DNA from: Candidatus Micrarchaeota archaeon
GTDB lineage: Archaea > Micrarchaeota > Micrarchaeia > Anstonellales > Bilamarchaeaceae
Length of the DNA: 64,000 bases
NCBI GenBank assembly: GCA_043821365.1
Contig: JBDRCX010000006.1
Span: 64,001 to 128,000 of the forward strand
Reading direction: 5' to 3'
A program made the position numbers and the translations under genes. Under the pieces are notes generated by a model, which saw only the letters and a program-made list of their open reading frames with translations, was not told where the DNA came from and did no database searches. Positions 7,014-29,252 of the stretch are shown here, piece after piece (position 1 is the first letter of the stretch; each line of letters starts with the position of its first letter).

Positions 7014-7751
7014 ATGGAAATAAATCGTGCATTCAGATCAACAACAAAAATTTTACTTGGACAAGAACTTGGACCAGTGGAAGAATACCATGGATTTCTT
7101 AGTAGATATATTGATCTTCCAGTAGAGACAAAATCAATTCTATCAGGAAAGCCAGTTTATCTTGCAGCAGAAACAAAAAAGAAAATTATATCAAACGAAG
7201 AAATGAGTAAGTTGTCTTTGCCTTCGGTAAGTATCAATGAAATAAAAGATATTGATTCCCTTTTTCATGCAGTTCAAGAAAATTTTCATCATGCAGGAAA
7301 TAAGATTGGGGGTCAGTTCAAAGAAATTAATCGATCAGATGAATGTTATGATGTTTATTTCATTAACAATTGCCTCAATGTTTACGAAACTCAATATGCT
7401 TCAAATTGTCAAATGATGAAGGATACTAAATATGTTTTTGGTTGTGCCTGGGGGGTGGAAAATACTTTTGGGATTAATACGAATGAATTCTACAAAGTTT
7501 CGAGAGTATTTGAATCAACGATGGTTCTTCATTCTAATGATGTCTACTACTCTTACAATTGTAGAAATTGCCATGATGTAATGTTTTGTATGAATCAAAG
7601 ATCAAAAAGAAATGCAATTGGGAATAATGAACTTTCAAAAGAAAAATATTTCGAATTGAAGAAAAAACTTCTTTCTGAAATTTGTGATCTGTTAATTAGG
7701 AAAAAAACTGCACCCGGCCATATGGATTTGTTTCAGGGGGTAAATGAATGA
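7014..7751 (+). CDS. Cys/Ser-rich hexapeptide-repeat protein, single A unit
   Basis: TTKILLGQELG, SINEIKDIDS, FCMNQRSKRNAIGN shared with paralogs. Confidence 0.85.
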   Translation: MEINRAFRSTTKILLGQELGPVEEYHGFLSRYIDLPVETKSILSGKPVYLAAETKKKIISNEEMSKLSLPSVSINEIKDIDSLFHAVQENFHHAGNKIGGQFKEINRSDECYDVYFINNCLNVYETQYASNCQMMKDTKYVFGCAWGVENTFGINTNEFYKVSRVFESTMVLHSNDVYYSYNCRNCHDVMFCMNQRSKRNAIGNNELSKEKYFELKKKLLSEICDLLIRKKTAPGHMDLFQGVNE

Positions 7752-8464
7752 ACATTCAGGAAAAATTTGATGGGACAGCATTAGTACTTTTTGGGACTGT
7801 ATTAGGTGAAATTGATGATTTTGAAAAAACTTTAAGCAAGAAACTACCAAGAACAGTTGGTGAGAAAGGACTAACTATACCACAATATGGCTCATTTAAA
7901 AAAATACCAAAAAACAAAGTTGTTCCAATAACTGAATTAGATAGAGTAGGACAACATAGGATAGAAATTGGACCTGGTGAAAATCTGGAAACCATCTCAG
8001 AAAAATGGTCGGAAAAAGCAATTTTTGTAGCAGATTTGAATGAAGGAATAAACAATGAGGTTATTGATTCTGCAATTTATTATAATCTGACAAATGCTTA
8101 CAAAATAATTGATTGTTTTAGTTCCAAACATATTGCATACTCTTTTTTCTCTGATAATTGCGATCATGCATTTGGAATAGAAAAATGCTTTGATTGTAGT
8201 TTTGTAATGAATGTAAGAGCATCCAGAAAAATAACAAGGGCATATGAAGTTGATTTTTCAGAGAACTGTAGTGACATAATGTTTTGCCATAATGTTGCAA
8301 ATGTTAAAGACTCATTATTTTGCCATAATGTAAAAAATCTGAGATATGCAGTGTTAAATAAAGTAGTTGGAAAGGAAGAGTATCTTAGAATAAAGAAAAT
8401 GGTAATTGAAGAAATAATAAAAAAATTAAAAACAAAAAATTCCTATTTTTTGGCATGTACTTGA
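7748..8464 (+). CDS. Cys/Ser-rich hexapeptide-repeat protein, single B unit (divergent)
   Basis: FCHNVKNLRYAVLN..VGKEEY; ATGA overlap with the upstream A gene. Confidence 0.85.
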   Translation: MNIQEKFDGTALVLFGTVLGEIDDFEKTLSKKLPRTVGEKGLTIPQYGSFKKIPKNKVVPITELDRVGQHRIEIGPGENLETISEKWSEKAIFVADLNEGINNEVIDSAIYYNLTNAYKIIDCFSSKHIAYSFFSDNCDHAFGIEKCFDCSFVMNVRASRKITRAYEVDFSENCSDIMFCHNVANVKDSLFCHNVKNLRYAVLNKVVGKEEYLRIKKMVIEEIIKKLKTKNSYFLACT

Positions 8465-8565
8465 ACGGCGTTCCGTTCAAGATAGTCAAAAAATTCCTAT
8501 TTTTTGGCATGTACTTGAACGGCGTTCCGTTCAAGATAGTCAAAAAATTCCTATTTTTTGGCATG
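8433..8565. repeat. 54-bp tandem repeat (2 full copies + 25-bp partial), two hairpins per unit
   Basis: Units start at 8433, 8487 and 8541; contain CAAAAAAT/ATTTTTTG and CTTGAACGG/CCGTTCAAG; span the stops of two convergent genes. Confidence 0.95.
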
Positions 8566-9309
8566 CTTCCATAAAAGCTCAAACTGTCTGCGGTAGGCTT
8601 CTGCAAGATCCTTTCCACGAATAATAATCCCGTGGAATGGTTCTGAAAATGTAATAAAAGCAACATTATCACCATAGATAAAAGTTGCTGTTGGACTGAA
8701 GAATTCAGATGATAAAAACCTGTATTCAGTGGTACCATAATCCTTTCCTGGAAGAAATCGATCACCTTCCCTAACAAGGACCCGTTCTTTGAGTTTGTGT
8801 TTTTTTAGAAGAAGGAAAATTTTGCTAAGGCCAATGGGATCTGCATCCATGAATTTTTTTTCATCTACACCCATAACAAGATCCTCACCACCGGTACGGA
8901 TAAGGGTTTCAATAACATCCATCATTATGGCTCGCACTGCTTTTTTACCGCTAAAAAGTTCAACCACTGAACGATCTTTCGAAGTGCCTGCTATTTTTGT
9001 AAGTTTTGGCATTATTTTTTTTACATTCTCATCAAATGAACTTGCCCAAGATAGAAATTCAGTTGGTGGAGCTGCATTGTAAAGTCTAACTTTATCTTTG
9101 ATAATAAAACTAACCAAACCTTTTTCAGAGAGTTTTTTCAAAGTGTCATAAACATATGGCCTATAGATACCAGAATATTGTGCAATTGTAGACACTGTTG
9201 CTTCGCCAATTCTCAGAAGAGTTAGATAGGCCAATGCTTCATTTTTTGTAAATCCAAGTTTGGTTAATGATTCTATTTCTTCTTCAAATGCCATAGTTAA
9301 TTTATGCAA
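8551..9309 (-). CDS. TrmB-family transcriptional regulator
   Basis: LGFTKNEALAYLTLL...SGIYRPYVYDTLKKLSEKGLV wHTH, then C-terminal effector-type domain. Confidence 0.88.
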   Translation of the reverse strand: MHKLTMAFEEEIESLTKLGFTKNEALAYLTLLRIGEATVSTIAQYSGIYRPYVYDTLKKLSEKGLVSFIIKDKVRLYNAAPPTEFLSWASSFDENVKKIMPKLTKIAGTSKDRSVVELFSGKKAVRAIMMDVIETLIRTGGEDLVMGVDEKKFMDADPIGLSKIFLLLKKHKLKERVLVREGDRFLPGKDYGTTEYRFLSSEFFSPTATFIYGDNVAFITFSEPFHGIIIRGKDLAEAYRRQFELLWKHAKK

Positions 9310-9327
9310 TATAGCTATTTTTATGTT

Positions 9328-9349
9328 TGTCGTTCTTACTAATACGACA
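9328..9349. promoter_or_regulatory. Inverted repeat TGTCGT-N10-ACGACA, putative operator
   Basis: 6-bp arms in the divergent TrmB/HTH_10 intergenic region. Confidence 0.55.
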
Positions 9350-9445
9350 GCCTCGTGATATAGGCGATGAATAGACGAATAAAGTGTCTATAAGTAAATA
9401 TATGTGGAGCGAATATTTAAATAATAAACAGAACATAATTAAAGT

Positions 9446-10102
9446 ATGAAATTTTGTGAAATGGGAGTTTATCATCATGATTGTTGGTTTACAGATGCAA
9501 TAGAAAAATTCCCAGAACTACAAGTCAAAGAAATATCTGCGCGAGTATGCAAATTAGAATCAGGGACAAAAATAAATACTGCGTGCTATCGTTTATTTTC
9601 ACCAAAAAAAGAATCACTAGATGGTTTTGTCAAGCAGATAGTTCCAAATGTATCTGGTGCTAAGCTTCTTTCTAGTGATGGTTCGGTTGCTTTATTGGAG
9701 GTATCATGGAGAGCACCAAAAACCTCCTACGATACTGTACTTGCAAGTGGATGTTCCACCACTTCATCCTGTTATGCAAAAGATGGATATGAAACATACT
9801 CATTATTCACTGAGGATCCTACGCAAATAAAGAAATTGTTTACAGATATGAATGAGATAGGCGAGGTAAAAATATTTGGCATAAAGAATGAACCAAAAAA
9901 TAATGATAATTACGGTCTAACTCCAAAACAAAGACAGGCACTGGCATCTGCAGTTTCCATGGGATATTACGAATGGCCAAAGAAGGTTAACTTAGAGGAA
10001 CTTGCATCCAGACTTGGAATCAAAAGACGTGCATTACAAGAGAATTTGAGAAAAGCGGAAGGTAGAGTGTTGCAGAAACTTTTGGATGAACTAACTAGTT
10101 AG
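9446..10102 (+). CDS. HTH_10 (bacterio-opsin activator-type HTH) regulator
   Basis: LTPKQRQAL..AVSMGYYEWPKKVNLEELA..LGI...L...LRKAE. Confidence 0.85.
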   Translation: MKFCEMGVYHHDCWFTDAIEKFPELQVKEISARVCKLESGTKINTACYRLFSPKKESLDGFVKQIVPNVSGAKLLSSDGSVALLEVSWRAPKTSYDTVLASGCSTTSSCYAKDGYETYSLFTEDPTQIKKLFTDMNEIGEVKIFGIKNEPKNNDNYGLTPKQRQALASAVSMGYYEWPKKVNLEELASRLGIKRRALQENLRKAEGRVLQKLLDELTS

Positions 10103-10866
10103 TTTTTTGCAATTATCCAAAGTGTATCAAAATATGCCCTAAAACTTTTTACTGCTTCTTCACTTTCAATCAGAAACCCTTTTGGCTCATTAGTAAAAAG
10201 TGCGATAAATGCTTTATTTTTATAGAAAACAATTTCCATATTCGTAATAAAATATTGCGGAAGAAAACGAATCTTAGATTTTTTCTGAGTAGTTGCCACC
10301 ATCTTTCCTTTGATATCAAAATTAGCAAGCATGTTCACTTTGATACCCTTTACTACCCTTCTCAGATGATGTTTATAGAAAAAATTTCTCCACATCGAGG
10401 TTATTTCATCTTTTGTTTCCTCGCCATAATAGGCTCCAATCACAAAATATTCATCATCCTTTTCCAACTCATCAACAAGATTCCTAAAGAAACTTGACAC
10501 CCCCTTAAAGCCTTCATAAAGAGTTGCGTTGGTTTTCTGCTCTGCTGCTTTTTTTTGCATTTCTAAATCAGGAAGCAGTTTCATCAGAAGTTCCCGATTT
10601 TGTTCCATACGCAAACGATTTTCATCAACATAATCCATGATTCGTTTAGGCTCCATTGCAGAGAAATGTTTTATTTTACCCTTGAGTACATGACCAACAA
10701 GACCTTTTTTTTCAAGTCGTCCCAGTATTTTGTAAACCTTGGATGATGAAACAGATGCAAGGGACGCGAGCTCTCCTGTTTTTGAACTGCCAAGTTTGAG
10801 AAGTGCAAGATAGACTTTTACCTCTCCTTTGCTCAATCCAATTTCTTCCAATAACTTCAAATCCAT
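10099..10866 (-). CDS. TrmB-family transcriptional regulator
   Basis: IGLSKGEVKVYLALLKLG...SKVYKILGRLEKKGLV; ends FDTLW. Confidence 0.88.
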   Translation of the reverse strand: MDLKLLEEIGLSKGEVKVYLALLKLGSSKTGELASLASVSSSKVYKILGRLEKKGLVGHVLKGKIKHFSAMEPKRIMDYVDENRLRMEQNRELLMKLLPDLEMQKKAAEQKTNATLYEGFKGVSSFFRNLVDELEKDDEYFVIGAYYGEETKDEITSMWRNFFYKHHLRRVVKGIKVNMLANFDIKGKMVATTQKKSKIRFLPQYFITNMEIVFYKNKAFIALFTNEPKGFLIESEEAVKSFRAYFDTLWIIAKN

Positions 10867-10901: not shown

Positions 10902-10936
10902 CAACTACGACCCCTCCAGGGGAAGATAGAATTAAA
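10902..10936 (+). promoter_or_regulatory. Conserved promoter element (CAACTACGA-CCCC-N4-GGGG, then purine tract and TTAAA)
   Basis: 28/35 identity, ungapped, to 15077-15111. Confidence 0.7.
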
Positions 10937-10960: not shown

Positions 10961-12529
10961 ATGGATTTAGATATTTATAATCATTTAAACAAACAATGGA
11001 AATCAACATACAAAATTCTTCTTGGCCAAGAAGCAGATGAACTAATTGAGCATAAAGATTGGCTCTGTAGAGGTAATGGTCCAAGATTACTAAAAAAATC
11101 TTCTATTTCTGGAAAAGAAATTGTATATTCAAGTGATAAATACTCTGATAATTCAAAATGGATAGGACATGATGAAGTGGGGGGGAAATTCGAACCATTG
11201 AATATGAATGAGATCAAAGATATTGATTCTATAATAGAGGCAGTAAGAGAAAGAATAACCTATTCTGGTAGTGTTGTTCTTGGAAACTCGAAATTTGTCA
11301 AAGGTAGTACAACCATTAGTGATTGTTTTTACATTTTGGATTCAGAAAGAGTTGCATTTTCTAAAAATGTTGCGTACTCAACCAGAGGAGGGTACAGTGA
11401 GAACATATTCGGGTGTTATGGTTTCGGGCCAGTAACATTTGCAATAAAATCATATGGGATAACTGAATCAACCAGGATTTTTTTGACTTCAAAAGCAGAT
11501 TTCTCTTCGGATATTTATTATTCGCATGGGATCTCAAACTGTATGGAATGTATTTTTTCATTCAATATAAGAAGCAAAAGATATGCAATTGGAAATTTAG
11601 TTCTTCCAAAAGAAAAATATGCTTTGCTTAAAAAGAAACTTCTTGCTGAGATTGCAGAAAAATTGAAAAAAGAAAAAACACTACCATCAATTGCTGAATT
11701 GATAAAGCATGAGGGAAATCCGATAGAATTGATAGATTTAGTTGGAACCACATCGAAAACTGAAAAGGAAGACAAACAAAGAATCGAAAAAGCATTTAAA
11801 CAAACAACAGAGGTTTTGATTGGTAAACCATTGAATGGCATAGATAAATATGCAACATGGATGAAACGTGAATCAAGTGTTTTATTGAAACCGGCAAACT
11901 CATGTATATCAGGAGAACCAATCACACTACCAGATTATGCAGGATTCATTGATTACCCGGATCAACGACTATTAACCCAAGAAGAAGCATACCGAGCAGG
12001 TGAAAAACTTGCCATTATAGAGGGAGAGGCACATAAATTATCAATTGAAAACGCTTCTGTTATTCTTAGTAAAATAGCCTATTTCTGTCCGTTTTGGTTT
12101 GCAGGAAAACTTGAGAATAATATTGATTCACCATTGAACATTGATTCTAGAGATTGCTATAGTGGAATCTTATACATACGATCAAAATTATGTGCATTTT
12201 CTTTTAGCCCACGAAGTTGCGAATACTGTTTTGGTTCAAGAGAAGGAAGGCATGTTTCATTTTCCATAAATTCACATTTTTCTATGCGTGTAACCCGTTG
12301 TTTCGAAGTGGACCATTGCTCGGATTGCTCAGATTGCTATTTTTGCCACAATTGCGAAAACGTTCAAGATTCAATGTTTTGTTTTAATGTAAAGAATTTG
12401 AGAAATGCAATTGGAAATACTCCAGTTGATCGCGGATTATATCAACAAACAAAGACCAATTTGAGAGAGTGGTTAGCAGAAAAACTTGAACAGAAAAATA
12501 AGGTGGACTCAACTATTTTTTCACTCTAA
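10961..12529 (+). CDS. Cys/Ser-rich hexapeptide-repeat protein, fused A-B
   Basis: Two internal homologous units; FEPLNMNEIKDIDS; FCHNCENVQDSMFCFNVKNLRNAIGN. Confidence 0.9.
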   Translation: MDLDIYNHLNKQWKSTYKILLGQEADELIEHKDWLCRGNGPRLLKKSSISGKEIVYSSDKYSDNSKWIGHDEVGGKFEPLNMNEIKDIDSIIEAVRERITYSGSVVLGNSKFVKGSTTISDCFYILDSERVAFSKNVAYSTRGGYSENIFGCYGFGPVTFAIKSYGITESTRIFLTSKADFSSDIYYSHGISNCMECIFSFNIRSKRYAIGNLVLPKEKYALLKKKLLAEIAEKLKKEKTLPSIAELIKHEGNPIELIDLVGTTSKTEKEDKQRIEKAFKQTTEVLIGKPLNGIDKYATWMKRESSVLLKPANSCISGEPITLPDYAGFIDYPDQRLLTQEEAYRAGEKLAIIEGEAHKLSIENASVILSKIAYFCPFWFAGKLENNIDSPLNIDSRDCYSGILYIRSKLCAFSFSPRSCEYCFGSREGRHVSFSINSHFSMRVTRCFEVDHCSDCSDCYFCHNCENVQDSMFCFNVKNLRNAIGNTPVDRGLYQQTKTNLREWLAEKLEQKNKVDSTIFSL

Positions 12530-12578
12530 TGACAAATGTCAGTTCATCCTTATATCAGATAAATTTTCAGTAGATTGC

Positions 12579-14222
12579 ATGGAAGGTAGCTACAATGAAC
12601 TCAACAAAGAATGGAAAATAACATCACGACTCGTATTTGGAGGAGAAATAGGGGAACTCCAAGATTATAGAGACTGGCTCATTGAATTGAATAATCCTAG
12701 ATTTACAAAAAACTCCTCAATTTCTGGTAAGGAAACTATTTTCTCAAGTAGTGAATATGATGACCAGTCCAGATTTCTGGCTCTTGACGAAATTCCAGCA
12801 ACACAATATTTTGAACCATTGAAAAATCATCAGATTTTTCAAAATTTGAACGGTAAACCGTTCAATCCTTTGAATATCAATGAGATCAAAGATATTGATT
12901 CCATAGTAGAAGCGATCCAAGAAAGAATCTATTATTGTGGGAATATAGTTTTAGGTAATTCGAAGTTTGTTGAGAAAAGTTCAAACATAACAAACAGTTT
13001 CTATGTTTATGATTCTGTAAAAATTAGTGATTGTAAAAATATAGCATACTCACAGTATCTTCGCCTATGTGAAAATGTATTCGGAACAAATGAGGGTGGA
13101 GAATCAAAATATTGCATACGGTGTTGTATACTTTTCAAAAATGCAAGAAGTTTTGAGTTGTGGAAAAGTACTTGTTGCACAGATTGTTATTATTCATTTG
13201 GATTGAATGGGTGTAATGATGTTATTTTCTCATTTAACATCCAGGGAAAGTCCAACGTAATAGGAAATCTTTCGCTTCCAAAAGACAAATACCGTGAGAT
13301 AAAGAAAAAACTACTTGATGAAATGAGAGACGAACTTGTTAAGACTAAAAAACTACCATCACTCGTAGAGCTGACTATAAAAGAACCGGAAATCCCTGAT
13401 GGCTATGGTTTGTGTGGACAGGATAAGGAAAAAAGCAGAAGTACAGTTGATAGTGCATTTAGCAAAACTTCTGAACTTTTGTTTGGTCAACAACTTCAAG
13501 GAAAGATGGAGGATTACGATGAATGGTTACGCTCACATATAATTGTCCCATATTCTGTGAAATCAGTACTAAGCAAAAAAACAGTCCAACTTTCTCAATG
13601 GCCTGGTTTGGCTCAGTTGCCAAAAAACAGGATAGTAACTTTGAATGAGGCTAGAGAACTAGCCAAACTTATGATAACAAATGAGCAAGCAGAAAGAATA
13701 TCACTAACAAATGCATCAGATTACTTAACAAAAATAGCATATTTCCCACCTGAAGAGATGACAGGAGAAAATACAAACTTAATTGAATGTCAATGGGGAT
13801 CATCAGCAGCAAATTGCTATCGATCTGTGATATGTGTATATAGTAAAAACTGCGGTTATTGTTCCTGGCCACGAAGTTCGGAAAATTGTTTTGGCTGTGG
13901 AATTGTTTTTGACTCTAATTTTTCGATGAAATGCTATGATTCAATTAAACTTTCCAGATGTTTTGAAGTAGATGCATCATCATCCTGTACTGACACGTAC
14001 TTTGCACATAACTGTGAAAATGTACGAGACTCGATGTTTTGCTTCAATGTAAAGAATTTGAAAAATGCAATTGGAAATTGTCAACTCCAAACTGATCAGT
14101 ATAAGAGTATAAAATCATCATTACAAGTGCAACTCCATAATGGATTAGAATTAAAAAAATGTCTTGGTCTAAGTATTTTTAGTCTTAATAGAAATAAGCC
14201 ACTTAAAGCATATCCCACATAA
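12579..14222 (+). CDS. Cys/Ser-rich hexapeptide-repeat protein, fused A-B, with 17-aa insertion
   Basis: Start moved to MEGSYNELNK (12579) by alignment with paralogs; same motifs. Confidence 0.88.
   Translation: MEGSYNELNKEWKITSRLVFGGEIGELQDYRDWLIELNNPRFTKNSSISGKETIFSSSEYDDQSRFLALDEIPATQYFEPLKNHQIFQNLNGKPFNPLNINEIKDIDSIVEAIQERIYYCGNIVLGNSKFVEKSSNITNSFYVYDSVKISDCKNIAYSQYLRLCENVFGTNEGGESKYCIRCCILFKNARSFELWKSTCCTDCYYSFGLNGCNDVIFSFNIQGKSNVIGNLSLPKDKYREIKKKLLDEMRDELVKTKKLPSLVELTIKEPEIPDGYGLCGQDKEKSRSTVDSAFSKTSELLFGQQLQGKMEDYDEWLRSHIIVPYSVKSVLSKKTVQLSQWPGLAQLPKNRIVTLNEARELAKLMITNEQAERISLTNASDYLTKIAYFPPEEMTGENTNLIECQWGSSAANCYRSVICVYSKNCGYCSWPRSSENCFGCGIVFDSNFSMKCYDSIKLSRCFEVDASSSCTDTYFAHNCENVRDSMFCFNVKNLKNAIGNCQLQTDQYKSIKSSLQVQLHNGLELKKCLGLSIFSLNRNKPLKAYPT
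12819..12874. mobile_element. 51-bp in-frame double-hairpin insertion flanked by TTGAA direct repeats
   Basis: TTGAAAAATC/GATTTTTCAA (12819-12842) and TTGAACGG/CCGTTCAA (12846-12865); TTGAA at 12819 and 12870; absent from the paralogs' FEPL(N/D) motif. Confidence 0.6.
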
Positions 14223-14940
14223 ACCAAAAGAATTTTCTATAACCATCTGCCAATTGCCTACTCTTCACTACGAATTGGATTGGGTTGTCACCCAACTTCC
14301 CAACTTCAACCCCAGTAAAACTAACCACATAATCTCCAAAAATATCGATTGCAGTTGGACTTGAATATTTTTTTGGTAGGAACTTATATGGTTTCCCAAC
14401 AAATTTTAGTATCTCTGGTTTATTTTCCTTAACCTCATGATCAAATAAATGCATGAATTTTATACCGCGTTTTTTTCTTTCACTATCAAACTTTGGAAGG
14501 AAATATTGCAATCTAGGATCAAGCCAAAATGCTTTTGCACCTATGAAATAGACTGTTTCTTCTTGCTCAAGTATGTCGTTGAGGTAGTTTTTGAATCCTT
14601 CCATACCTCTATAAAAATAAGCTTCTTCATTTTCTCTAACTTTCCGATATTCTTTCTGAAGCGAAGGAAGGATAGCACCCAATTCATTTTGTCTTTCTAC
14701 AAGTATGTCTGCAAGCCTGTTTGGGTCCCTTGGGATATAATGCTTTTTTCCGGATACTACCAACTCTGATATCAGGCCTTTATCGAGTAATTTTGCGATA
14801 GAATCGTAAATGTTTCTTCTATGAACACCAGAACGTACTGCTATCTTTTCTATTGGTGCCTGGCCCATTCTGATTAATGCTTCGTAAACCTTAACCTCAT
14901 TGATTGTAAGGCCTATTTTTGCAAGTGTATCCTCGTACAT
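14203..14940 (-). CDS. TrmB-family transcriptional regulator
   Basis: IGLTINEVKVYEALIRMG...SGVHRRNIYDSIAKLLDKGLI. Confidence 0.88.
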   Translation of the reverse strand: MYEDTLAKIGLTINEVKVYEALIRMGQAPIEKIAVRSGVHRRNIYDSIAKLLDKGLISELVVSGKKHYIPRDPNRLADILVERQNELGAILPSLQKEYRKVRENEEAYFYRGMEGFKNYLNDILEQEETVYFIGAKAFWLDPRLQYFLPKFDSERKKRGIKFMHLFDHEVKENKPEILKFVGKPYKFLPKKYSSPTAIDIFGDYVVSFTGVEVGKLGDNPIQFVVKSRQLADGYRKFFWFMWDML

Positions 14941-15076: not shown

Positions 15077-15111
15077 CAACTACGACCCCCAGGGGGGAAA
15101 ATAAACTTAAA
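15077..15111 (+). promoter_or_regulatory. Second copy of the CAACTACGA-CCCC-N4-GGGG promoter element
   Basis: 28/35 identity to 10902-10936; same context (divergent TrmB and fused AB gene). Confidence 0.7.
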
Positions 15112-21433: not shown

Positions 21434-22196
21434 GCACATCACCGTTAATTATATCTATCAATGATGGAAGTTTCTTTCTTGCTTTCAGAATCTCACGCAT
21501 TTCACCAATGAGTTTTTCCTTTAATTTATGGTATTCTTCAGGACTAAATTGGTGGTTTCCGATCATATAACTTTTATTTCTTTGATTGAAAGAAAACATA
21601 CAATTGGTGCAATTTTCCAGACTTCCTGTAAAATAACAATCTGATGCAACATAGTTTCTGATGGTTTCCAAGCATCGGACATTTTTGTAGGTTTCAAAGG
21701 TTTTGATATTAAACTTACTCCCTTCACCAATTGCATTACCACCAAAGATGTACTCTGCAAATCTTAGAACTGATGAGTATGCGACAAATTTACAATCATA
21801 AACATCTTGGGTTTTATAAATAAATGAGGAATTGATGCACCTATTAGAGACCTGAACTTCACGGGAGTTACCAAGAACAACATTACCAATATAATATGCT
21901 TTTTCATTAACAGCTTCAATAATGGAATCAATATCTTTGATTTTGTTTATATCATATTTTTGCTTGCCAATTGTGTTCATATATTGATCAATTTCATCAA
22001 GGCTTAGGAATTTGGCCCCTGGAGCAACTTTTTCAGATGATACAATAACTTCTTTCCCAGATAAGGCGGATTTTTTCATACCAAATGGATCAACATATCT
22101 TAGAAGCCATGTCTCGTATTCACCAAGGTTGCCAAGTTCTTCTCCAAATAGCACCTTGGATGTTTTTTTCCATGCAACATTAATATCAGAATTCAT
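21426..22196 (-). CDS. Cys/Ser-rich hexapeptide-repeat protein, single A unit
   Basis: WKKTSKVLFGEELG; DINKIKDIDS; YYIGNVVLGNS. Confidence 0.88.
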   Translation of the reverse strand: MNSDINVAWKKTSKVLFGEELGNLGEYETWLLRYVDPFGMKKSALSGKEVIVSSEKVAPGAKFLSLDEIDQYMNTIGKQKYDINKIKDIDSIIEAVNEKAYYIGNVVLGNSREVQVSNRCINSSFIYKTQDVYDCKFVAYSSVLRFAEYIFGGNAIGEGSKFNIKTFETYKNVRCLETIRNYVASDCYFTGSLENCTNCMFSFNQRNKSYMIGNHQFSPEEYHKLKEKLIGEMREILKARKKLPSLIDIINGDVHG

Positions 22197-22966
22197 TATT
22201 GCTGCCCCACATTAAAAATATTCAAACTAAGTCGTTTGTCTTTTTCTAGTTTTTTTGTAAGTTCTTCAAGAACTTTTTGTTTTATTTCGAGGTATTTTTC
22301 TTTACCGACTTCGATATTGGCAATTGCGTACCTCTTTGCTTTTACATTAAAACAAAACATGCAGTTATTCAGATTTTCACAATTATGACAGAACAGTGAA
22401 TCAGTACAATTGCTACAGTCACTCATTTCAAAGCAACGATTAAGGTTTTCAGAATTGTAACACTTGATACAGAATTGAGAGGAAAAAGTGTAGAAAGTAC
22501 CAATATTGTAATCTGATTGCCTTGGCCAAAAACAATAGAAACAATATTTGGAACGGACAAGAGCAACACACTTGTAACTATAATGAGATGAATAGTAAAA
22601 ATCACAATCAATAAGATTGCTGCACTCACCATAGCGAGTATTTGGAGTGGTGGTGGATAATTTTGCCAAAAGATTTTTAGCAGTGGAAAAGGTTAGTTGG
22701 TTTAGTTCATCATCAGAAAGATGGTTTTTTCCGTGGGTAAAATAGGCTTCTTCTATGGTAAGTATGTTGTGTTTTATGTCTCGATAAAAATCAAATGGTG
22801 GAAGGTATATTTTTTCACCACTAATAAGTGATTTGCCATATTCATTCGTTGATACATTTTCAGTTAGCCAATCTTCATAATCTTTGAAATTACAAAGTTT
22901 TTTGCCTAGAACAATCGAAGTAATGGTCTGAAAAGATTTTTCAAGATCAGATTCTAGTTTATCCAT
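22196..22966 (-). CDS. Cys/Ser-rich hexapeptide-repeat protein, single B unit
   Basis: FWPRQSDYNIG; FCHNCENLNNCMFCFNVKAKRYAIAN; ATG 22966 follows GGTGAT. Confidence 0.88.
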   Translation of the reverse strand: MDKLESDLEKSFQTITSIVLGKKLCNFKDYEDWLTENVSTNEYGKSLISGEKIYLPPFDFYRDIKHNILTIEEAYFTHGKNHLSDDELNQLTFSTAKNLLAKLSTTTPNTRYGECSNLIDCDFYYSSHYSYKCVALVRSKYCFYCFWPRQSDYNIGTFYTFSSQFCIKCYNSENLNRCFEMSDCSNCTDSLFCHNCENLNNCMFCFNVKAKRYAIANIEVGKEKYLEIKQKVLEELTKKLEKDKRLSLNIFNVGQQ

Positions 22967-23747
22967 TCCAATCACCTTTCCCACTTATTATCTCTATTAT
23001 CGAGGGAAGTTTCTTCTTTCTTTTAAGTTCATCGGCAAATTCACCAACTAATTTTGATTTCAGTTCAGCATATTTATCTTTAGTCAGCTGTATATTGCCA
23101 ATTAGATAGTTCTTATTTCTTTGATTAAATGAAAAGATACAGTTGGTACAGTCCTCAAGACTTGCAGAATAGAAACTATCAGATGCAACATTACAATGAT
23201 AGGTTTCCAAGCACCGGAGTTGTTTGTGCGGATCAAGGACTTTTATACAGAACTGAATCTCTCCACCAAAACAACAACCAAATGAGTACTCTGGACTGCG
23301 AATAGAAGTTGTATATGCAACGTATTTTCCATCATAAACATCCTGGCAACCCATGGCATAAACAGTATTAACGCAACGGTGTGAGTTTATCACATTGGTT
23401 GAATGTCCCAAAACAATATTTCCAGCATAACAGACTTTTTCTTTAGCTGCATGAATAATTGAATCAACATCTTTGATATCATTGATATTGAAGGGCATTG
23501 AAAACATTCTTTTTTCGTATTCATGCATTTCCTCATGACCTATCACTGGTGCTTGTTTTGGCACCCTATTGGATGAGATTGTAACATCATTGCCACTTAG
23601 AATGGATTTTCTTTTTACGATTGGGTCAGTATATGTTTTTAGATAATTTGTAAATTCTGATAGTTCACCAACTTCTTGACCAAGCAGAACCTTACAAGTG
23701 GATTTCCAAGATTTATTTAATTGATTAATAATCATAGCATCAGACAT
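22959..23747 (-). CDS. Cys/Ser-rich hexapeptide-repeat protein, single A unit
   Basis: LNKSWKSTCKVLLGQEVG; FNINDIKDVDS; ATG 23747 follows GGTGAT. Confidence 0.88.
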   Translation of the reverse strand: MSDAMIINQLNKSWKSTCKVLLGQEVGELSEFTNYLKTYTDPIVKRKSILSGNDVTISSNRVPKQAPVIGHEEMHEYEKRMFSMPFNINDIKDVDSIIHAAKEKVCYAGNIVLGHSTNVINSHRCVNTVYAMGCQDVYDGKYVAYTTSIRSPEYSFGCCFGGEIQFCIKVLDPHKQLRCLETYHCNVASDSFYSASLEDCTNCIFSFNQRNKNYLIGNIQLTKDKYAELKSKLVGEFADELKRKKKLPSIIEIISGKGDWNG

Positions 23748-24537
23748 TAGGATCACCTTTTCCTATTGAATAAATGTCAAAATTTACGGTTTTAGTTTTT
23801 GATAATTGATCGTTAATATGAGTAAGTAGAATTTTTTTCACACGCATATATTCTTCACGGCCAACTTCTATGTTTCCTATCGCATAGCGCTTATTTTTCA
23901 CATTAAAGCAAAACATGCAGTCGTTCAGACCTTCTGAATTATGACAGAATAGAATATCGCTTGAATGATAGCAACCATCAACTTCGAATGACCGGATAAC
24001 TTTAACTGAATTGTAAGCATGAATGCAGAATTGGGAATAGGGAGTATTATGGCAACCAAACATATTCTGAGAATACATTGGATAGTTGGAATATGCCACG
24101 TTTTTTATGCCGCCATAAAGGTCGTCACCGTAGTATAGATACATGCCATCCCCTGCACCACTGCATTTTTCAATGTTTGAAAATGTCTTCCATCTGAAAT
24201 TACCGATGGCATAGGCAACTGGTTTTACAATCCTGTTTACCATGTCTTTTATGTCAGAATCCTTTATCTCATCATAAATGAATTTAGTATGATTTACTTT
24301 GTCCATTTCTTCCATGGAAATAGATCTTTTGCTTGAAATTTTTCTCCCCATAAAATTTAGAGTTGGGAAGTTCCAAACCTCAACATCACTAACTGCAGAT
24401 TTAGCTGGATGGGGGAGTGGAACATATTTACCAAGCCAGGGACCATAATCATCAATACCAACTAGTGGTTTGCCAAGTAAAAGGTTAGATGTACTAGAAA
24501 ATTCCTTTTCTAATTCAGGCCAGACCATATTAGGCAC
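23740..24537 (-). CDS. Cys/Ser-rich hexapeptide-repeat protein, single B unit (divergent)
   Basis: FCHNSEGLNDCMFCFNVKNKRYAIGNIEVGREEY. Confidence 0.88.
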   Translation of the reverse strand: MPNMVWPELEKEFSSTSNLLLGKPLVGIDDYGPWLGKYVPLPHPAKSAVSDVEVWNFPTLNFMGRKISSKRSISMEEMDKVNHTKFIYDEIKDSDIKDMVNRIVKPVAYAIGNFRWKTFSNIEKCSGAGDGMYLYYGDDLYGGIKNVAYSNYPMYSQNMFGCHNTPYSQFCIHAYNSVKVIRSFEVDGCYHSSDILFCHNSEGLNDCMFCFNVKNKRYAIGNIEVGREEYMRVKKILLTHINDQLSKTKTVNFDIYSIGKGDPNV

Positions 24538-25306
24538 CCTCCCCCAGAATATCCATTATGGACATTATTCTCTTTCTTTTTTTCAAATCCTCAGCCATTT
24601 CGCCTATTAATTTTGCCCTCAACGGGGCATATTGTTCTTTTGTGAGTTGTACATTGCCGACCATATTTCGTTTTGCACGTACATTGAAAGTGAAAAGGCA
24701 ATCAGATGAACCAGTAACATTATGGCAGAAATAACAATCAGAACTACTTACAGTAAGACTGCACTCAAAACAGCGTTTGAGAGAATTGTTATAGAGGCAT
24801 CTTATGAGCATGGAACTGTCACCGCTTGAAGTTGATGCAAAACAATATTCGTTATTCCGTAGCATGTAGCAGTATGCAACATATTTTCCATTGACAATCA
24901 TTGATGAATCAAGAACATAATTGCTGTCAGTTATGTTATCTGAATTTTTCACAAATTTCGAGTTTCCGAGAACTTTGTTGCCACTGTAAATGAATTTTTC
25001 TTCTACTGCATCAAAGAGAGAATCAACATCCTTGATTCGGTTTACATCAATTGGCTTGGACAGAATAGATGCACTTTGGATTTCTTTATTGTAATCAAAA
25101 AATCTGGCTTTTGGAGGATAATGTTTTGACGTGACAAATAGGTCTTTGCCAGATATTATTGATTTTACTGATTTGCCAACCAATGGTTCTTTTAGATAGT
25201 CAGAATAATCAGACATCACGCTAAGTGGTTCCCCAAATAGGACTTTGGTAGTTTGCTTCCAAGCATTATCCATAATTGTCTCTATGCCATTAGTTTCGAA
25301 TGCCAT
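24530..25306 (-). CDS. Cys/Ser-rich hexapeptide-repeat protein, single A unit
   Basis: AWKQTTKVLFGEPL; IDVNRIKDVDS; YSGNKVLGNSKFV; start set at MAFET (25306). Confidence 0.86.
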   Translation of the reverse strand: MAFETNGIETIMDNAWKQTTKVLFGEPLSVMSDYSDYLKEPLVGKSVKSIISGKDLFVTSKHYPPKARFFDYNKEIQSASILSKPIDVNRIKDVDSLFDAVEEKFIYSGNKVLGNSKFVKNSDNITDSNYVLDSSMIVNGKYVAYCYMLRNNEYCFASTSSGDSSMLIRCLYNNSLKRCFECSLTVSSSDCYFCHNVTGSSDCLFTFNVRAKRNMVGNVQLTKEQYAPLRAKLIGEMAEDLKKRKRIMSIMDILGEGA

Positions 25307-26886
25307 AATTTTGACCCTCTTCCACCTAAATTGAAAATGCTCCACGGAATGCTCTTTCTTTTTTCAAGATCATCAACGATCTGAGCAAGAACAGTGGATT
25401 TAATTGATTTGAACTTATCCTGTGGCAACACTCCATTGCCAATTGCAAACCGTAAATTTTTTGCATTAAAACAAAACATACTATCTCGTACATTTTCGCA
25501 ATTGTGTGCAAAGTAAATATCTGAACAGTTATTTGATGCATCCACCTCAAATGCTCTTGAGAGATTCATGGAATAATATGTGTGAATACAGAAATTCGAA
25601 GTAAATGAAAGACCACAACCATAGACATATTTTGAATGCCTAGGCCAATAGGAAAAGGCAACATTTTCATTGAATGATGCAATTGGACAGTAATAACAAT
25701 TTACAGAAGTATTGCAAAGTGGAACCATGATTAAATTTTTTGTTTCTCCCAATTGACCTTCTGGATTGAAATAAGCAATTTTACCGATTGATTTTTTCAA
25801 GCTAGACAATGACTCTATATCTTCTCCATCAAGTTGCAGATTTTCTCCTAATGCCCAATTTTCCCATTGGGTAACTAATCGATCACGAGAATAAAGGTGG
25901 AATGGTGAAGTTTCACCAAGATAAACTGGTTTTCCGGTTGCCGAAGATTTTTCTTCACTTATATATGGCACATGACTTAGCAACCAGCCCTTATAATTAT
26001 CAATTTGTGAAAGGGGGTTGTTGAATAAAAGAGATGTTGTTTTTTGAAAACCTAATTCAATAGGTCCTTTATTTTTTTGTTCTTTATCATCAGAAGGATT
26101 GAAATTTTTTGGAACAGGAAGTGCATCACAACTTTTTGATGCAATTTCCATCAATGATGGAAGTTTTTTCTTTATCTCAAGCTCAATCTTAAGATCTTCA
26201 ATAAGTTTTTCTTTTAAAGAAAGATATTTTTCTTTTGTCAATTGGATATTTCCTATGACATTTCTTTTGTTTTTTAGATTAAATGAAAAAAGAACATCCT
26301 GTGAACCCTGGACACATGAACTGAAATAACAATCACTTGAATCATAACATTTCCATGCTTCAAGACATCGTGATTGTTTGTGGGTTTCAAATGCCCTTAC
26401 TGTTGAGGTTGTAAAAGCATCACTAACAACACCAAAAAGATATTTGCTACCCCGGCAATATGAACAATATGCCATATATTCTGAATCATAGATAAAATTG
26501 GAATTGTAAACATAGAACGAGTTTTGTACATCTGAACTTTTTTCAACATGTTTGGAATTTCCAAGAACAACATTACCGCAATAGTAAACTCTTTCTTCCA
26601 AAGCTTCAATGATAGAATCGATATCTTTGATCTCATTTATATTCAATGGTTCGAATTTTTGGCCATAATCAATTTCATCAAGTGAAATAAATTTGGCATT
26701 GTCTTCATAATCAGATACGGCACAGTACACTTCTTTATTTGATTTTGCTGATTTTTTATTTTTTAGAGGAACACAACCTTCTGAAAGCCATTCGGAATAG
26801 TTATCAATATCACCTACCTCTGCACCTAAGAGCACTTTCATAGTAGATTTCCAAGACTTGTTTATTGATTCACGAACCTCGGTCAT
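25282..26886 (-). CDS. Cys/Ser-rich hexapeptide-repeat protein, fused A-B
   Basis: FEPLNINEIKDIDS; YWPRHSKY; HNCENVRDSMFCFN. Confidence 0.9.
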   Translation of the reverse strand: MTEVRESINKSWKSTMKVLLGAEVGDIDNYSEWLSEGCVPLKNKKSAKSNKEVYCAVSDYEDNAKFISLDEIDYGQKFEPLNINEIKDIDSIIEALEERVYYCGNVVLGNSKHVEKSSDVQNSFYVYNSNFIYDSEYMAYCSYCRGSKYLFGVVSDAFTTSTVRAFETHKQSRCLEAWKCYDSSDCYFSSCVQGSQDVLFSFNLKNKRNVIGNIQLTKEKYLSLKEKLIEDLKIELEIKKKLPSLMEIASKSCDALPVPKNFNPSDDKEQKNKGPIELGFQKTTSLLFNNPLSQIDNYKGWLLSHVPYISEEKSSATGKPVYLGETSPFHLYSRDRLVTQWENWALGENLQLDGEDIESLSSLKKSIGKIAYFNPEGQLGETKNLIMVPLCNTSVNCYYCPIASFNENVAFSYWPRHSKYVYGCGLSFTSNFCIHTYYSMNLSRAFEVDASNNCSDIYFAHNCENVRDSMFCFNAKNLRFAIGNGVLPQDKFKSIKSTVLAQIVDDLEKRKSIPWSIFNLGGRGSKLWHSKLMA

Positions 26887-28448
26887 TTCATCCCTCCGAT
26901 GGTAAAAATATTAAATCGAAGATTTTTCTTGTCAAGTATTTCTGAACTTAGTTGCTCAGTGATAGATTCTTTTATTTTGGAATAATCTGCTTGTGGGATG
27001 GTCGTATTCCCAATTGCATGCCTCTTGCCTTTTACATTAAAACAGAACATACTGTCACTTAGACCCTCAGAATTATGACAGAAAAATGAATCAGAACATT
27101 TGTTCGACGTGTCTACTTCTAGACAACGGCTAAGATATAGTGAATTATGACAATTGATACAGAACTCGGAATTCATATTACGGTAGCCACCAAAAATATA
27201 CTTTGAACTAAATGCTGATGATATGACACCAAGATTTTCACTTTGGACTATGTCAAAGCCTTTGTAGACATTGTTCGTATAGTAAACTAATGGTGACTGA
27301 ATGATATTACTATTTACACCATCCAAAATTTCAACTGAAAAATAGGCAATTTCAGCGAGATTTGAAATGATTGAATCTACTGAATTGATTTTTGATGGAT
27401 CCAGAGTGAGTTTACTAAGTTCCAACCCTTCCCCTAAAGTAACTAGAAGTTCTTTTGGAAAAAGAGAAAGGGCATATAGATCTGGATGAAGAGGGAGATA
27501 GGTTGTTCTTCCAAACATTGTTTTTATTGAATCCATCTTTATTTTTTCAGATGAAAGCCAAGACTCATAATTTTTTATTGTTCCAGGATCTTTTTTCAGA
27601 ATAATTTTGAATGTTGATGTAAAACTCCTCTCAATTACTTGCATATCGCCTGTATCTGGTTTTTTTGGTGTGGAAAGAACTGGTCGTTTTGGTATTTTTC
27701 CCTTTCTTACTAGATCAAATAATGAAGGGTATTTTTTATTCTTTTTCAGATCATGAACAACTTCGGATATAAGCTTCTTTTTCAATTCTAGATATTTGTC
27801 CCTAGTAAGTTGAAGATTTCCAATTCTATACTTTTTATTTCTTTGGAAAAATGAAAACAAAAGCTCACTAGAATTGACGCATTGATTAGAAAAATAGATA
27901 TCAGTACAATCACCGAGAATTTGACTTTCAAAAATACGCTTGCAATGAAACCCACCATAGAACTTTATTGTAAATTCTGTTTTTCCGAACCACCCTGAAC
28001 CAAAAATATGTTTACTGTTAAGACGAACTAAAGATGAATGGAAAACGTTAGTAGATTGGGAGATATTCAGAGAATTGGCAACATAATTTGAATCCATTAC
28101 AAGATCTGAAGATTCAACGAACTTGGAATTACCTAGAATTCTGTTGCCTGTGTATGTCCATTCTTCAGAAACTGCCCTTGTAATTGAATCAATGTCTTTG
28201 ATATCATTTATTGACAGTGGTTTTGATTCTTTTATTTCATCTGCAGAAATAACTTTTGCCAATTTAGAATAATCTGATGCAAGTACCACATCTTTACCAG
28301 AAATTGCGGATTTTGAAACTTGAGGTTTTGGACAGTACTCCTTCAACCACTCTTCATAATCCCTAAGCTCACCTAGCTCTTCTCCAAGAAGAATCTTGCA
28401 TGTTGATGACCAGGATTTGTTAAGTGATGAATAAAGCTCGGAATTCAT
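26883..28448 (-). CDS. Cys/Ser-rich hexapeptide-repeat protein, fused A-B; first gene of the 9-gene operon
   Basis: LNKSWSSTCKILLGEELG; PLSINDIKDIDS; FCHNSEGLSDSMFCFNVKGKRHAIGN. Confidence 0.9.
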   Translation of the reverse strand: MNSELYSSLNKSWSSTCKILLGEELGELRDYEEWLKEYCPKPQVSKSAISGKDVVLASDYSKLAKVISADEIKESKPLSINDIKDIDSITRAVSEEWTYTGNRILGNSKFVESSDLVMDSNYVANSLNISQSTNVFHSSLVRLNSKHIFGSGWFGKTEFTIKFYGGFHCKRIFESQILGDCTDIYFSNQCVNSSELLFSFFQRNKKYRIGNLQLTRDKYLELKKKLISEVVHDLKKNKKYPSLFDLVRKGKIPKRPVLSTPKKPDTGDMQVIERSFTSTFKIILKKDPGTIKNYESWLSSEKIKMDSIKTMFGRTTYLPLHPDLYALSLFPKELLVTLGEGLELSKLTLDPSKINSVDSIISNLAEIAYFSVEILDGVNSNIIQSPLVYYTNNVYKGFDIVQSENLGVISSAFSSKYIFGGYRNMNSEFCINCHNSLYLSRCLEVDTSNKCSDSFFCHNSEGLSDSMFCFNVKGKRHAIGNTTIPQADYSKIKESITEQLSSEILDKKNLRFNIFTIGGMK

Positions 28449-28485
28449 GTTAGTATGGACGCTTTAATCATATAATAGAGTAACA

Positions 28486-28504
28486 CCGTTGCAGAGCGGT
28501 TTTG
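28486..28504 (-). promoter_or_regulatory. Motif CAAAACCGCTCTGCAACGG upstream of the operon TATA-like box
   Basis: 17/19 identity to 16901-16919; similar ~9-nt spacing to an AT-rich box (TATTATAT). Confidence 0.7.
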
Positions 28505-28535
28505 GCATCTCTCAATGAAATAATGCGTTGTTTAA

Positions 28536-29252
28536 TCAGCGCATGATCCGTAAGATGTCATTCAAAACTGGAAGTAACTTCTTTTCTGCTTTTCTCAAAA
28601 GTTCTGCACAAGTAGACGGACTTATGTCTAGTTTCTTTGACAGCTCTTCTATATTGATTTTTTTAGGTTCTTCATAATACCCATATCTACAGGCAAGATC
28701 AAAAACTTCCATCTGTCTATCTGTTAAAATTTCACTGGCAAATTTTAGTTTACTAAACCCAGACGTTCTAAAATTATCAAGAGAAACTGATTGTGAAGGT
28801 TCAAGATATCTTTTTGATTTGATTTTAAGATCATAACCATGGTCTTTTACAAGTTCCATAAAATGTTTTAAACTTTTGAAATTCGGTGCAAGCATGGTAA
28901 CATGATCAACACCATCCTCTGTCCATGTTGGCTCTATCCACATGGTTTTAGTTTTTGCAAGTGCAGGAGCAGTGGCAAGATCCTTGCTTTGTTTAACAGA
29001 AATTTGTGACTTGTGATTACCTATTATGATTATTGCGACTTCTTTGACTTTTGATTGTTTTTTGAAGAGTTCGACAGTAGACCTGAGGTTGGATGTATCA
29101 ACTTCAAAAAGATTAGTAATTGTTTTTTCATCCTGGCCTATTGTTGCAAGCCATTTTATTTTGACATCTTTTAATTTGTCAGTAACTGCTATTGAAGTAC
29201 AATCATGGATTTGTTCAAGCTCCACAATAAGAGGTTGAATTTTATCAGCCAT
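28536..29252 (-). CDS. HTH_10 (bacterio-opsin activator-type HTH) regulator
   Basis: LTDRQMEVFDLACRYGYYEEPKKINIEELSKKLDIS...LLRKAEKK. Confidence 0.87.
   Translation of the reverse strand: MADKIQPLIVELEQIHDCTSIAVTDKLKDVKIKWLATIGQDEKTITNLFEVDTSNLRSTVELFKKQSKVKEVAIIIIGNHKSQISVKQSKDLATAPALAKTKTMWIEPTWTEDGVDHVTMLAPNFKSLKHFMELVKDHGYDLKIKSKRYLEPSQSVSLDNFRTSGFSKLKFASEILTDRQMEVFDLACRYGYYEEPKKINIEELSKKLDISPSTCAELLRKAEKKLLPVLNDILRIMR

Follow-up and report, generated by a model that had tools for sequence, protein, structure and literature searches.

Paired Micrarchaeota proteins with a predicted beta-solenoid fold and their conserved association with an FtsK/HerA-superfamily ATPase

ATPases of the FtsK/HerA superfamily are associated with dedicated partners in several described systems. 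In archaeal HerA-NurA and in bacterial SIR2-HerA and DUF4297-HerA, a compact operon encodes a co-occurring nuclease or NADase together with a P-loop ATPase whose N-domain is beta-rich and which carries a helical insertion. The coupling proteins of type IV secretion systems (T4SS), such as TrwB, VirD4 and DotL, combine a nucleotide-binding domain carrying an inserted all-alpha domain with an N-terminal membrane anchor, and serve many clients with one ATPase. Here, we analysed a 64-kb stretch of Micrarchaeota DNA (G000:C6:64001-128000, hereafter the window, on which all coordinates are based), in which a 22-kb cluster (7014-29252) combines a single ATPase gene of this superfamily with 14 genes for cysteine-rich proteins that occur as A/B pairs. 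Co-occurrence, adjacency and a shared operator support the view that the A/B genes and the ATPase are one conserved unit.

By analogy, the nearest system-level counterparts of this locus appear to be the HerA-partner complexes, with which it shares the ATPase class, the beta-rich N-domain, the helical insertion and the compact operon with a co-occurring partner. This partner, however, is a pair of solenoid proteins rather than a nuclease or NADase, and the number of partner pairs per ATPase ranges from 1 to more than 20. NurA, Sir2 and DUF4297 were found neither among the scanned neighbours nor in a recurrent-neighbour clustering that covered about 103 loci. With the T4SS coupling proteins, the ATPase shares the inserted all-alpha domain and the principle of one ATPase for many clients; unlike them, it has a soluble beta-rich N-domain instead of an N-terminal membrane anchor, and the same clustering revealed no T4SS, relaxase or membrane genes nearby. 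As an analogy only, the cluster also recalls ESX/type VII secretion (EccC; EsxA/B, PE/PPE), where an FtsK/HerA-superfamily ATPase is tied to tandem paralogous pairs that act as heterodimers and have multiplied into families. Yet ESX substrates fold as helical hairpins, EccC has three ATPase domains and a membrane anchor, and ESX membrane components are always adjacent, none of which were seen here. The system could yet prove to be a categorically new machine.

Distribution of the A/B genes and their link to the ATPase

A first-pass annotation, made from the letters of the window, had described the 14 genes as paralogs sharing conserved blocks and devoid of membrane-targeting signals, and these statements held throughout. 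All-against-all BLASTP comparisons showed that the genes are mutually homologous (E 1e-9 to 1e-163), the proteins of about 520 amino acids being tandem duplications of one module of about 250 amino acids. Modules fall into two subtypes, A and B, with 20-30% identity between them, and the 14 genes amount to 20 modules (10 A and 10 B), six genes being A-B fusions and the other eight forming 4 split A,B pairs. The blocks named in the first-pass annotation do exist and are subtype-specific: I-N-E-I-K-D-I-D-S and Y-x-G-N-x-x-L-G-N-S mark the head/solenoid junction of A, and FCHNCEN..MFCFN.K..RYAIGN is confined to B, whose last coils conserve E176, H190-N191-x-E193, F200, N203-x-K205 and G-N213 (numbering of the B module 20669-21442). 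No transmembrane helix or signal peptide was detected in the A/B proteins, the highest 19-residue Kyte-Doolittle mean being 1.64. A precedes B without exception, in fused or neighbouring genes, both here and in 19 of 20 loci collected around the ATPase. Given this constant order, and the fusion or translational coupling of the two, A and B probably work as a 1:1 A-B (pseudo)heterodimer.

Conservation was followed in 63 B and 62 A modules. The closest relative of 106 of these 125 modules lies in another genome, where the best matches of A and B partners fall in the same gene or pair; the pairs are hence old, distinct and co-evolving rather than recent local amplifications. The A/B modules matched nothing in Pfam, NCBIfam, PADLOC or the sequences and profiles of the Protein Data Bank (PDB), and no published description of the family was found in the literature searched; the CysRReps preprint names Micrarchaeota only in a taxon list. 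With a median pI of about 7, the modules are near-neutral, and the idea that they mimic DNA was dropped.

The cluster sits in a 1.2-Mb genome (6 contigs, 87% complete), and a search of the assembly located every A/B copy of this genome within it. The nearest named relative is Candidatus Bilamarchaeum dharawalense, a groundwater-derived member of the Micrarchaeota (DPANN) in the order Anstonellales (PMC8561730), with 83% identity for one module (20669-21442). In an even set of 201 Micrarchaeota genomes, the A/B family was found in 35, concentrated in one order; within the source genus, it occurred in 3 of 11 other genomes. The number of copies per genome ranges from one pair to about 50 candidate modules, and the family comprises 1,774 clusters (50% identity) at E <=1e-3 and 314 at E <=1e-30. 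All named sequence matches are Micrarchaeota-type archaea. On this sequence evidence, the attribution to DPANN genomes, which the first-pass annotation had made, is supported, the family belonging to Micrarchaeota and mostly to Anstonellales. No relative was found among the viral contigs of IMG/VR. Bacterial relatives are unconfirmed: Atlas clusters labelled 'CaiB/BaiF family', partly from Bacillota, resemble the module (cosine 0.96; TM-scores 0.78/0.84), and sequence searches and the genome scan for A/B relatives list only Micrarchaeota-type archaea, leaving a link to bacteria or the candidate phyla radiation (CPR) as a lead.

When the ATPase was searched in the same 201 genomes at E <=1e-40, 33 genomes were found to have both components, 2 the A/B family only, 4 the ATPase only and 162 neither. 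The ATPase is thus present in 33 of 35 family-positive genomes versus 4 of 166 family-negative ones. The asymmetry between 33/35 and 33/37 makes it look as if the A/B genes need the ATPase more than the ATPase needs them. In the four ATPase-only genomes no A/B gene lies beside the ATPase gene, although in one of them the contig stops there. Two open reading frames (ORFs) of about 250 amino acids downstream of the lone ATPase of G032 were considered and rejected as family members (hhalign probability <1%).

Adjacency is also marked when loci are collected around the ATPase, which is immediately flanked by A/B genes in 19 of 20 cases from about 17 genera. Three of these loci (L015, L016 and L018) are bare ATPase-A-B operons, and a fourth (L010) has a divergent ATPase|A-B module. 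Among loci collected independently around B modules, the ATPase lies within 10 kb in 29 of 77, and in 17 of the 39 that are at least 15 kb long; the chance expectation is roughly 2%, a rough estimate for one gene per genome of about 1 Mb. Many pairs are therefore dispersed, but the single ATPase gene is where the main array is found.

The two components also share regulatory sequence, and promoter motifs do recur in pairs, as the first-pass annotation had reported. A 14-bp palindrome, CCGCTCTACAGCGG (16906-16919, plus strand), lies about 8 bp upstream of the TATA-like box before the ATPase gene, and a degenerate copy, CCGCTCTGCAACGG (28486-28499, minus strand), occupies the same position before the TATA-like box of the nine-gene A/B operon. 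Having its own promoter and operator, the ATPase gene is not simply chained to the A-B gene upstream. The CCGCT-N4-AGCGG and TATA layout recurs in other genera before ATPase genes (L004, L006) and before arrays (L003, L005, L007, L024). Gene order aside, nothing speaks more strongly for a joint action of motor and arrays than this shared operator.

The first-pass annotation had further proposed that the whole cluster is one coherent system, and had named co-localisation of its modules with TrmB, HTH_10 and DUF87 ATPases in other genomes as a check. For the A/B genes and the ATPase this is borne out by the figures above; the linkage to regulators is recurrent but looser. In the approximately 103 loci of the clustering, recurrent neighbours were the ATPase (50 loci), HTH_10 proteins (31), tandem Lrp/AsnC proteins (19), TrmB proteins (11) and an enzyme dependent on pyridoxal phosphate (PLP; 10), and apart from housekeeping genes no further family recurs. 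TrmB genes are therefore near only a minority of arrays.

Two loci deserve mention in their own right. Genome G087 has two separate minimal ATPase-A-B modules (L015 and L016) with diverged ATPase paralogs, each about 50% identical to the query, and one of them (L016) has an orthologue of the first TrmB gene of the window alongside. In a sister genus (L001, 9431-10577), the ATPase gene is separated from the array by two small inserted genes, one of them encoding a DUF6036/DUF2204 nucleotidyltransferase, which suggests a toxin-antitoxin-like pair.

Predicted fold of the modules and features of the ATPase

An AlphaFold2 (AF2) model of the B module 20669-21442, made from an alignment of 45 B modules, reached a mean predicted local distance difference test score (pLDDT) of 82.8 and a predicted template modelling score (pTM) of 0.86. 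It has an alpha/beta head at about residues 1-105 (pLDDT >90), strand-rich coils from about residue 107 and a long C-terminal helix (222-243). The module is accordingly predicted to consist of an N-terminal alpha/beta domain, a narrow beta-solenoid of 12 residues per turn and a C-terminal helix. Foldseek found nothing in the PDB with this model (best E 1.2). An exhaustive structural aligner returned almost only beta-helix proteins, with modest Z scores: phi29 gp12 (5.7), the ryegrass ice-binding protein (5.6), UspA1 (5.4) and the Tenebrio molitor antifreeze protein (TmAFP, 1ezg; 5.4), together with many left-handed beta-helix (LbH) acyltransferases. The resemblance to TmAFP (PDB 1EZG) and other thin beta-solenoids (3ULT, 1M8N) lies in the 12-residue coil and a core stack of small residues and cysteines (Z 5.4-5.6). 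In contrast to these helices, the A/B proteins have no sequence homology to them in the PDB search, no TxT ice-binding face and no conserved pairs of cysteines; they are cytoplasmic, have a head domain and a C-terminal helix, and are paired and linked to an ATPase. The solenoid shares with the insect antifreeze helices a fold class, not ancestry or function.

Periodicity in the sequences points to the same coil. Across the 125 modules, the autocorrelation of Cys/Ser positions peaks at lags of 3, 6, 9, 12, 18 and 24 residues (0.14-0.30; about 0 in shuffled sequences), and Cys/Ser ladders align when the sequences are set in rows of 12 residues. Cysteine columns range from 24 to 97%: one in B (97%) and one in A (90%) are nearly always Cys, and the others (24-87%) show single replacements by Ser, Thr, Ala, Val or Ile. 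Correlations in presence or absence between these columns mostly lie between -0.3 and +0.4, some modules retain only 3-5 of 18 ladder cysteines, and no conserved set of three or four Cys/His metal ligands was found in the 63 B and 62 A modules. The spacing of 3, 6 and 12 residues is explained by the 12-residue solenoid coil, and the pattern of replacement indicates that the cysteines are core-packing positions rather than metal ligands.

The ATPase (16965-19109, plus strand) was identified from Pfam, AF2, Foldseek and Walker motifs, as well as from co-occurrence and synteny. Its beta-rich N-domain (residues 1-170) is followed by the P-loop core (200-510), into which a helical stretch is inserted, and by a basic segment that is conserved (511-570); the tail is disordered, first acidic and Pro/Glu-rich, then Lys-rich. 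The AF2 model, a monomer made from an alignment of 18 orthologues (mean pLDDT 66), has a disordered C-terminal third and places the helical insertion at 274-373. Walker A (G-S-G-G-K, 210-216) and Walker B (D436-E437) are invariant in the 18 orthologues, and judging from these motifs the enzyme is catalytically intact. No transmembrane segment was detected in it, the highest 19-residue hydropathy (1.66) falling inside the core at 405.

The HerA/TrwB-like assignment of the first-pass annotation was borne out by Pfam, with DUF87 at 1.2e-10 (42.3 bits, cut-off 23.2) and TrwB_AAD_bind at 9.7e-9 (35.0 bits, cut-off 20.5; best stretch only 204-261), accompanied by weak FtsK_SpoIIIE and TraG-D_C matches. 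Matches in NCBIfam and PADLOC are at the P-loop level only (CedD, TraD, HerA), plus mad8 at 7.8e-11; the NCBIfam HerA models score 17-21 bits versus cut-offs of 800-970, over the P-loop only, and a PDB profile search aligned only the P-loop residues 212-264. A Foldseek search of the PDB gave 124 matches at E <=1e-3, the 50 listed being HerA, TrwB, VirB4, DotL (T4CC) and DndH chains. These include HerA (8wiv, 7.5e-9; 4d2i, 8.9e-9; long alignments with a high root mean square deviation, rmsd) and TrwB (1.3e-8; rmsd 6-7 A over about 340 columns, TM-score by target 0.41-0.47). On its predicted model, the ATPase appears about equally near to HerA, TrwB, DotL, VirB4 and DndH among the matches listed. 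The nearest Atlas clusters are DUF87 and TrwB_AAD_bind ATPases of Micrarchaeota, CPR (Saccharimonadota) and Bacillota. By these tests, the protein is an FtsK/HerA-superfamily P-loop ATPase that is neither HerA proper, since its equivalog scores and type of partner do not fit, nor a canonical coupling protein, since it has neither the anchor nor T4SS genes.

Gene layout, regulators and neighbours

Regulators lie among the A/B genes in the left part of the cluster. The first pair is split, with an A module (7014-7751, plus strand) that is co-orthologous with the A of the minimal ATPase-A-B-TrmB module in L016, and a B module (7748-8464, plus) that overlaps its A by 4 nt and is the most Cys-poor B module; both were identified by BLASTP to their paralogs and by typing. 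A perfect 54-bp tandem duplication (8433-8540) spans the stop codon of this B gene, each copy containing a hairpin (TGAACGGCGTTCCGTTCA) and a T-run; either a terminator was duplicated here or the repeat arose by recent slippage, as far as can be guessed. TrmB-family regulator 1 (8551-9309, minus; PF01978, E 1e-17), the orthologue of which adjoins the minimal module in L016, is divergent from HTH_10 regulator a (9446-10102, plus; PF04967, E 3.6e-19), which has an orthologue inside the L009 array. TrmB regulator 2 (10099-10866, minus; E 7e-16) and TrmB regulator 3 (14203-14940, minus; E 1.4e-12) are each divergent from a fused A-B gene, 10961-12529 (plus) and 15156-16748 (plus), respectively. 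Between these lies a further fused gene called at 12486-14222 (plus). Two family domains were recognised by BLASTP in the genes at 10961 and 12486, and family domains likewise in the one at 15156.

To the right of the ATPase gene stands the minus-strand operon of nine coupled genes that the first-pass annotation had called; seven of its eight junctions overlap by 1-64 nt and one has a gap of 1 nt. In the direction of transcription, it consists of the fused A-B genes 26883-28448 and 25282-26886, three split pairs (A 24530-25345 with B 23740-24537; A 22959-23756 with B 22196-22984; A 21426-22196 with B 20669-21442, the modelled one, which has the orthologue in Ca. Bilamarchaeum dharawalense) and the fused gene 19093-20667. 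The fused genes were recognised by BLASTP and their family domains, the split ones by BLASTP and typing, and the four split genes between 22196 and 25345 also by best-match orthology. Homology begins further in than two of the first-start ORF calls: the true starts are probably near 12579 rather than 12486 (homology from residue 35) and near 25306 rather than 25345, some 31 and 13 codons later, respectively. The remaining ORFs of at least 80 amino acids in the span do not exceed 135 amino acids, overlap the listed genes and are probably spurious. One of 80 amino acids (16732-16974) reaches from the fused gene 15156-16748 into the ATPase gene and covers the operator and TATA box of the latter; because of this overlap and because no homologue was found among neighbours, it is probably no gene. 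HTH_10 regulator b (28536-29252, minus; PF04967, E 2e-19) closes the cluster.

All five regulators called in the first-pass annotation were confirmed by Pfam. The three TrmB proteins (E 1e-12 to 1e-17) score 47.7-64.2 bits with the N-terminal winged helix PF01978 (cut-off 25.6), and NCBIfam TrmB/TrmBL models, at 28-50 bits versus cut-offs of 500-650, mostly match the N-terminal part. The two HTH_10 proteins (about 1e-19), which are of the Bat type, match PF04967 in their C-terminal part at 68.8 and 69.5 bits (cut-off 23.1). Sites of the CCGCT-N4-AGCGG type mostly adjoin an orthologue of HTH_10 regulator b, with such orthologues placed next to operator and array, or between the two, in L001, L003, L005, L006, L007, L024 and L025, and we infer that this protein is the likely binder of the operator. 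A second palindrome, ACGACCCC..GGGG, has just two copies in the window (10907-10922 and 15082-15097, both plus), each upstream of a fused gene (10961 and 15156) with a divergent TrmB gene. The locus has two separate regulatory sub-modules. Five of the nine TACGAC hexamers in the window fall in promoter or intergenic regions of the cluster (6960, 9343, 10906, 15081 and 16769), one of them within an inverted repeat, GTCGT-N10-ACGAC (9329-9348), between the divergent genes of TrmB 1 and HTH_10 a; the TrmB paralogs may share this hexamer as a half-site. Homologues of HTH_10 b were also found in 6 of 19 genomes of the same taxonomic family (f1) scored as family-negative, indicating that the regulators are associated rather than obligatory. 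In such family-negative relatives, a class-V aminotransferase gene adjoins the HTH_10 b homologue instead (L021).

A fourth regulator class is associated with the family. It is a protein of about 330 amino acids with two AsnC-type helix-turn-helix domains and Lrp/AsnC ligand-binding domains, and occurs near or inside arrays in the 19 loci counted above; examples are 38117-39103 in the window, L004 (6582-7586 and 18799-19797), L012 (11790-12791) and L013 (11810-12793). The gene for the PLP enzyme (5381-6901, minus) precedes the cluster and encodes a threonine/cysteine-synthase-like protein (Pfam PALP, 5.7e-27; weak NCBIfam matches) with one predicted transmembrane helix (337-355) and a C-terminal extension of about 150 amino acids. 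It adjoins the module in 10 of the approximately 103 loci, all checked ones within one taxonomic family, and is probably outside the system. Just beyond the array, two radical S-adenosylmethionine (radical-SAM)/SPASM-like paralogs (368 and 369 amino acids, mutual E 6e-77) flank a gene for myo-inositol-1-phosphate synthase (29282-32735). They were considered as maturases of the Cys-rich proteins and rejected, the 20 ATPase-centred loci containing no homologue of either. Only unrelated radical-SAM ORFs lie beside single arrays (L013, and L025, where a SPASM gene stands between an HTH_10 gene and the array), arguing against a conserved radical-SAM linkage.

DNA runs containing the locus came from metagenomes of groundwater and biofilm; apparent joints in the DNA contigs were discarded as repeat artefacts (sides of 20-21 nt). 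In a groundwater metatranscriptome of 2025, a single contig of 151 nt matches 19635-19785 without a difference, inside the fused gene 19093-20667, and hints weakly at transcription in situ, with DNA carry-over possible. Among the matches listed for a 4.5-kb query from the locus, none was an RNA dataset.

Possible roles of the ATPase and its paired partners

We give about even chances to a model in which one hexameric motor is served by exchangeable, separately regulated A/B heterodimers. The locus would then be the full complement, in the source genome, of an accessory Micrarchaeota system with two obligatory parts and local switches. The first part would be the A/B pairs, diverged copies of one module (head, solenoid with a Cys/Ser/Ala core ladder, C-terminal helix); these pairs are ancient, and other genera have separate orthologues of each. 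The second would be the single soluble ATPase with HerA-like and T4SS-coupling-protein-like features, which may form a ring motor. Different A/B pairs would serve as exchangeable clients or adaptors of this one motor: the blocks common to all pairs (the head/solenoid junction of A; E, H-N-x-E, N-x-K and G-N in the last coils of B) may be its docking or active surface, and the variable solenoid flanks could confer pair-specific specificity. Local regulators would choose which pairs are made, the HTH_10 protein presumably acting through the CCGCT-N4-AGCGG site common to the ATPase gene and the main operon, and the TrmB paralogs at other pairs.

Several observations weigh against this model. In 22 of the 39 long B-centred loci there is no ATPase within 10 kb, and four genomes have the ATPase without detectable A/B genes, so that the motor may have a separate primary role. 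The genomes compared are related metagenome-assembled genomes, and the co-occurrence counts are not independent events. No library scan assigns a function to the A/B proteins, and AF2 confidence drops to a pLDDT of only 61-64 at residues 170-210, the best-conserved stretch of B, where the solenoid reading depends mainly on sequence periodicity as a result. A complex prediction for ATPase residues 1-570 with a B module, run without controls, scored 0.00 and speaks neither for nor against the model.

Other explanations start from the same ATPase and differ in what they make of its partners. The protein could be a coupling ATPase that recruits A/B pairs, or cargo bound to them, for Ced/T4SS-like transfer to the cell that hosts the DPANN symbiont, into it or onto its surface, the arrays being an effector repertoire. 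TrwB_AAD_bind above its cut-off, the weak TraG-D_C match, the fact that TrwB, DotL and VirB4 are the lowest-rmsd Foldseek matches among those listed, and nearest Atlas clusters (DUF87 and TrwB_AAD_bind, with TraG-D_C) that are common in episymbiotic CPR would fit such a role, as would one motor with many paired paralogs bearing conserved C-terminal segments, which recalls one coupling ATPase with many substrates. The ATPase nonetheless has no membrane anchor, and no channel, relaxase or membrane gene recurs in the approximately 103 loci. Moreover, beta-solenoids are rigid and ill suited to translocation, the pairs form orthologous sets that evolve slowly, unlike lineage-specific effectors, and the module was not found in most Micrarchaeota searched. 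We regard this explanation as unlikely. A little more doubtful still is a HerA-plus-partner defence or conflict system (cf. Sir2-HerA, DUF4297-HerA), with A/B heterodimers as sensors or effectors on the ATPase ring, directed against viruses or mobile DNA. Here the patchy, accessory distribution even within the genus (3 of 11 other genomes), the compact ATPase-partner operons with winged-helix regulators alongside, the mad8 and HerA models as best PADLOC matches, a top Foldseek match to the bacterial HerA of SIR2-HerA complexes, and an invariant polar cluster in B that could be a catalytic site are set against the lack of any recognisable nuclease, NADase or other effector domain in A/B, flanks that are housekeeping with no known defence genes recurring, NCBIfam HerA scores far under the cut-offs, and the high number of old, conserved pairs, which can reach the tens in a 1-Mb genome, unlike known defence loci.

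Two further proposals concern the A/B proteins themselves. As rod-like solenoids with conserved terminal coils and variable flanks, present at 1:1 stoichiometry, near-neutral, soluble and abundant as paralogs, they might polymerise end to end into cytoplasmic filaments or scaffolds like bactofilins, with the ATPase assembling or remodelling them. The searches tied them to bactofilin or another filament former neither by sequence nor by a specific fold, however, a structural element is not expected to be dispensable in most close relatives, and ligand-type regulators at single pairs would be unusual for cytoskeletal genes; we give this proposal little credence. The first-pass annotation had offered a diversified cytoplasmic metal- or ligand-binding sensor repertoire, for which the cysteine content of 2-6% and local CxxCxxCxxC strings speak, and the low AF2 confidence in the Cys-dense segment of B could mean a missing cofactor. 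That cysteines are swapped singly, without correlated ligand sets, leaves the metal-binding idea unsupported and, to our mind, highly improbable.

Beyond the motor served by exchangeable heterodimers, a bolder version of that model, which we hold to be conceivable but rather improbable, would see a new archaeal ATP-driven machine in which a soluble HerA/coupling-protein hybrid ring loads, threads or deploys paired beta-solenoid rods, with E, H-N-x-E and N-x-K of B as a new active site; it might be a symbiont-host delivery or conflict device of Anstonellales-type Micrarchaeota. What had been 'Cys-rich hypotheticals' is now a defined unit with a motor ATPase, obligate A/B pairs, an operator and candidate regulators, from which the tempting metal-binding reading has been removed. 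DPANN genomes are tiny, and yet some Anstonellales give at least 2% of theirs to the A/B genes and their ATPase, as with the 22 kb of the 1.2-Mb genome studied here. Should solenoid pairs indeed be handled by the ATPase, they would be a new class of clients for FtsK/HerA/VirD4 motors, and could offer a handle on how uncultured symbionts interact with their hosts or invaders.

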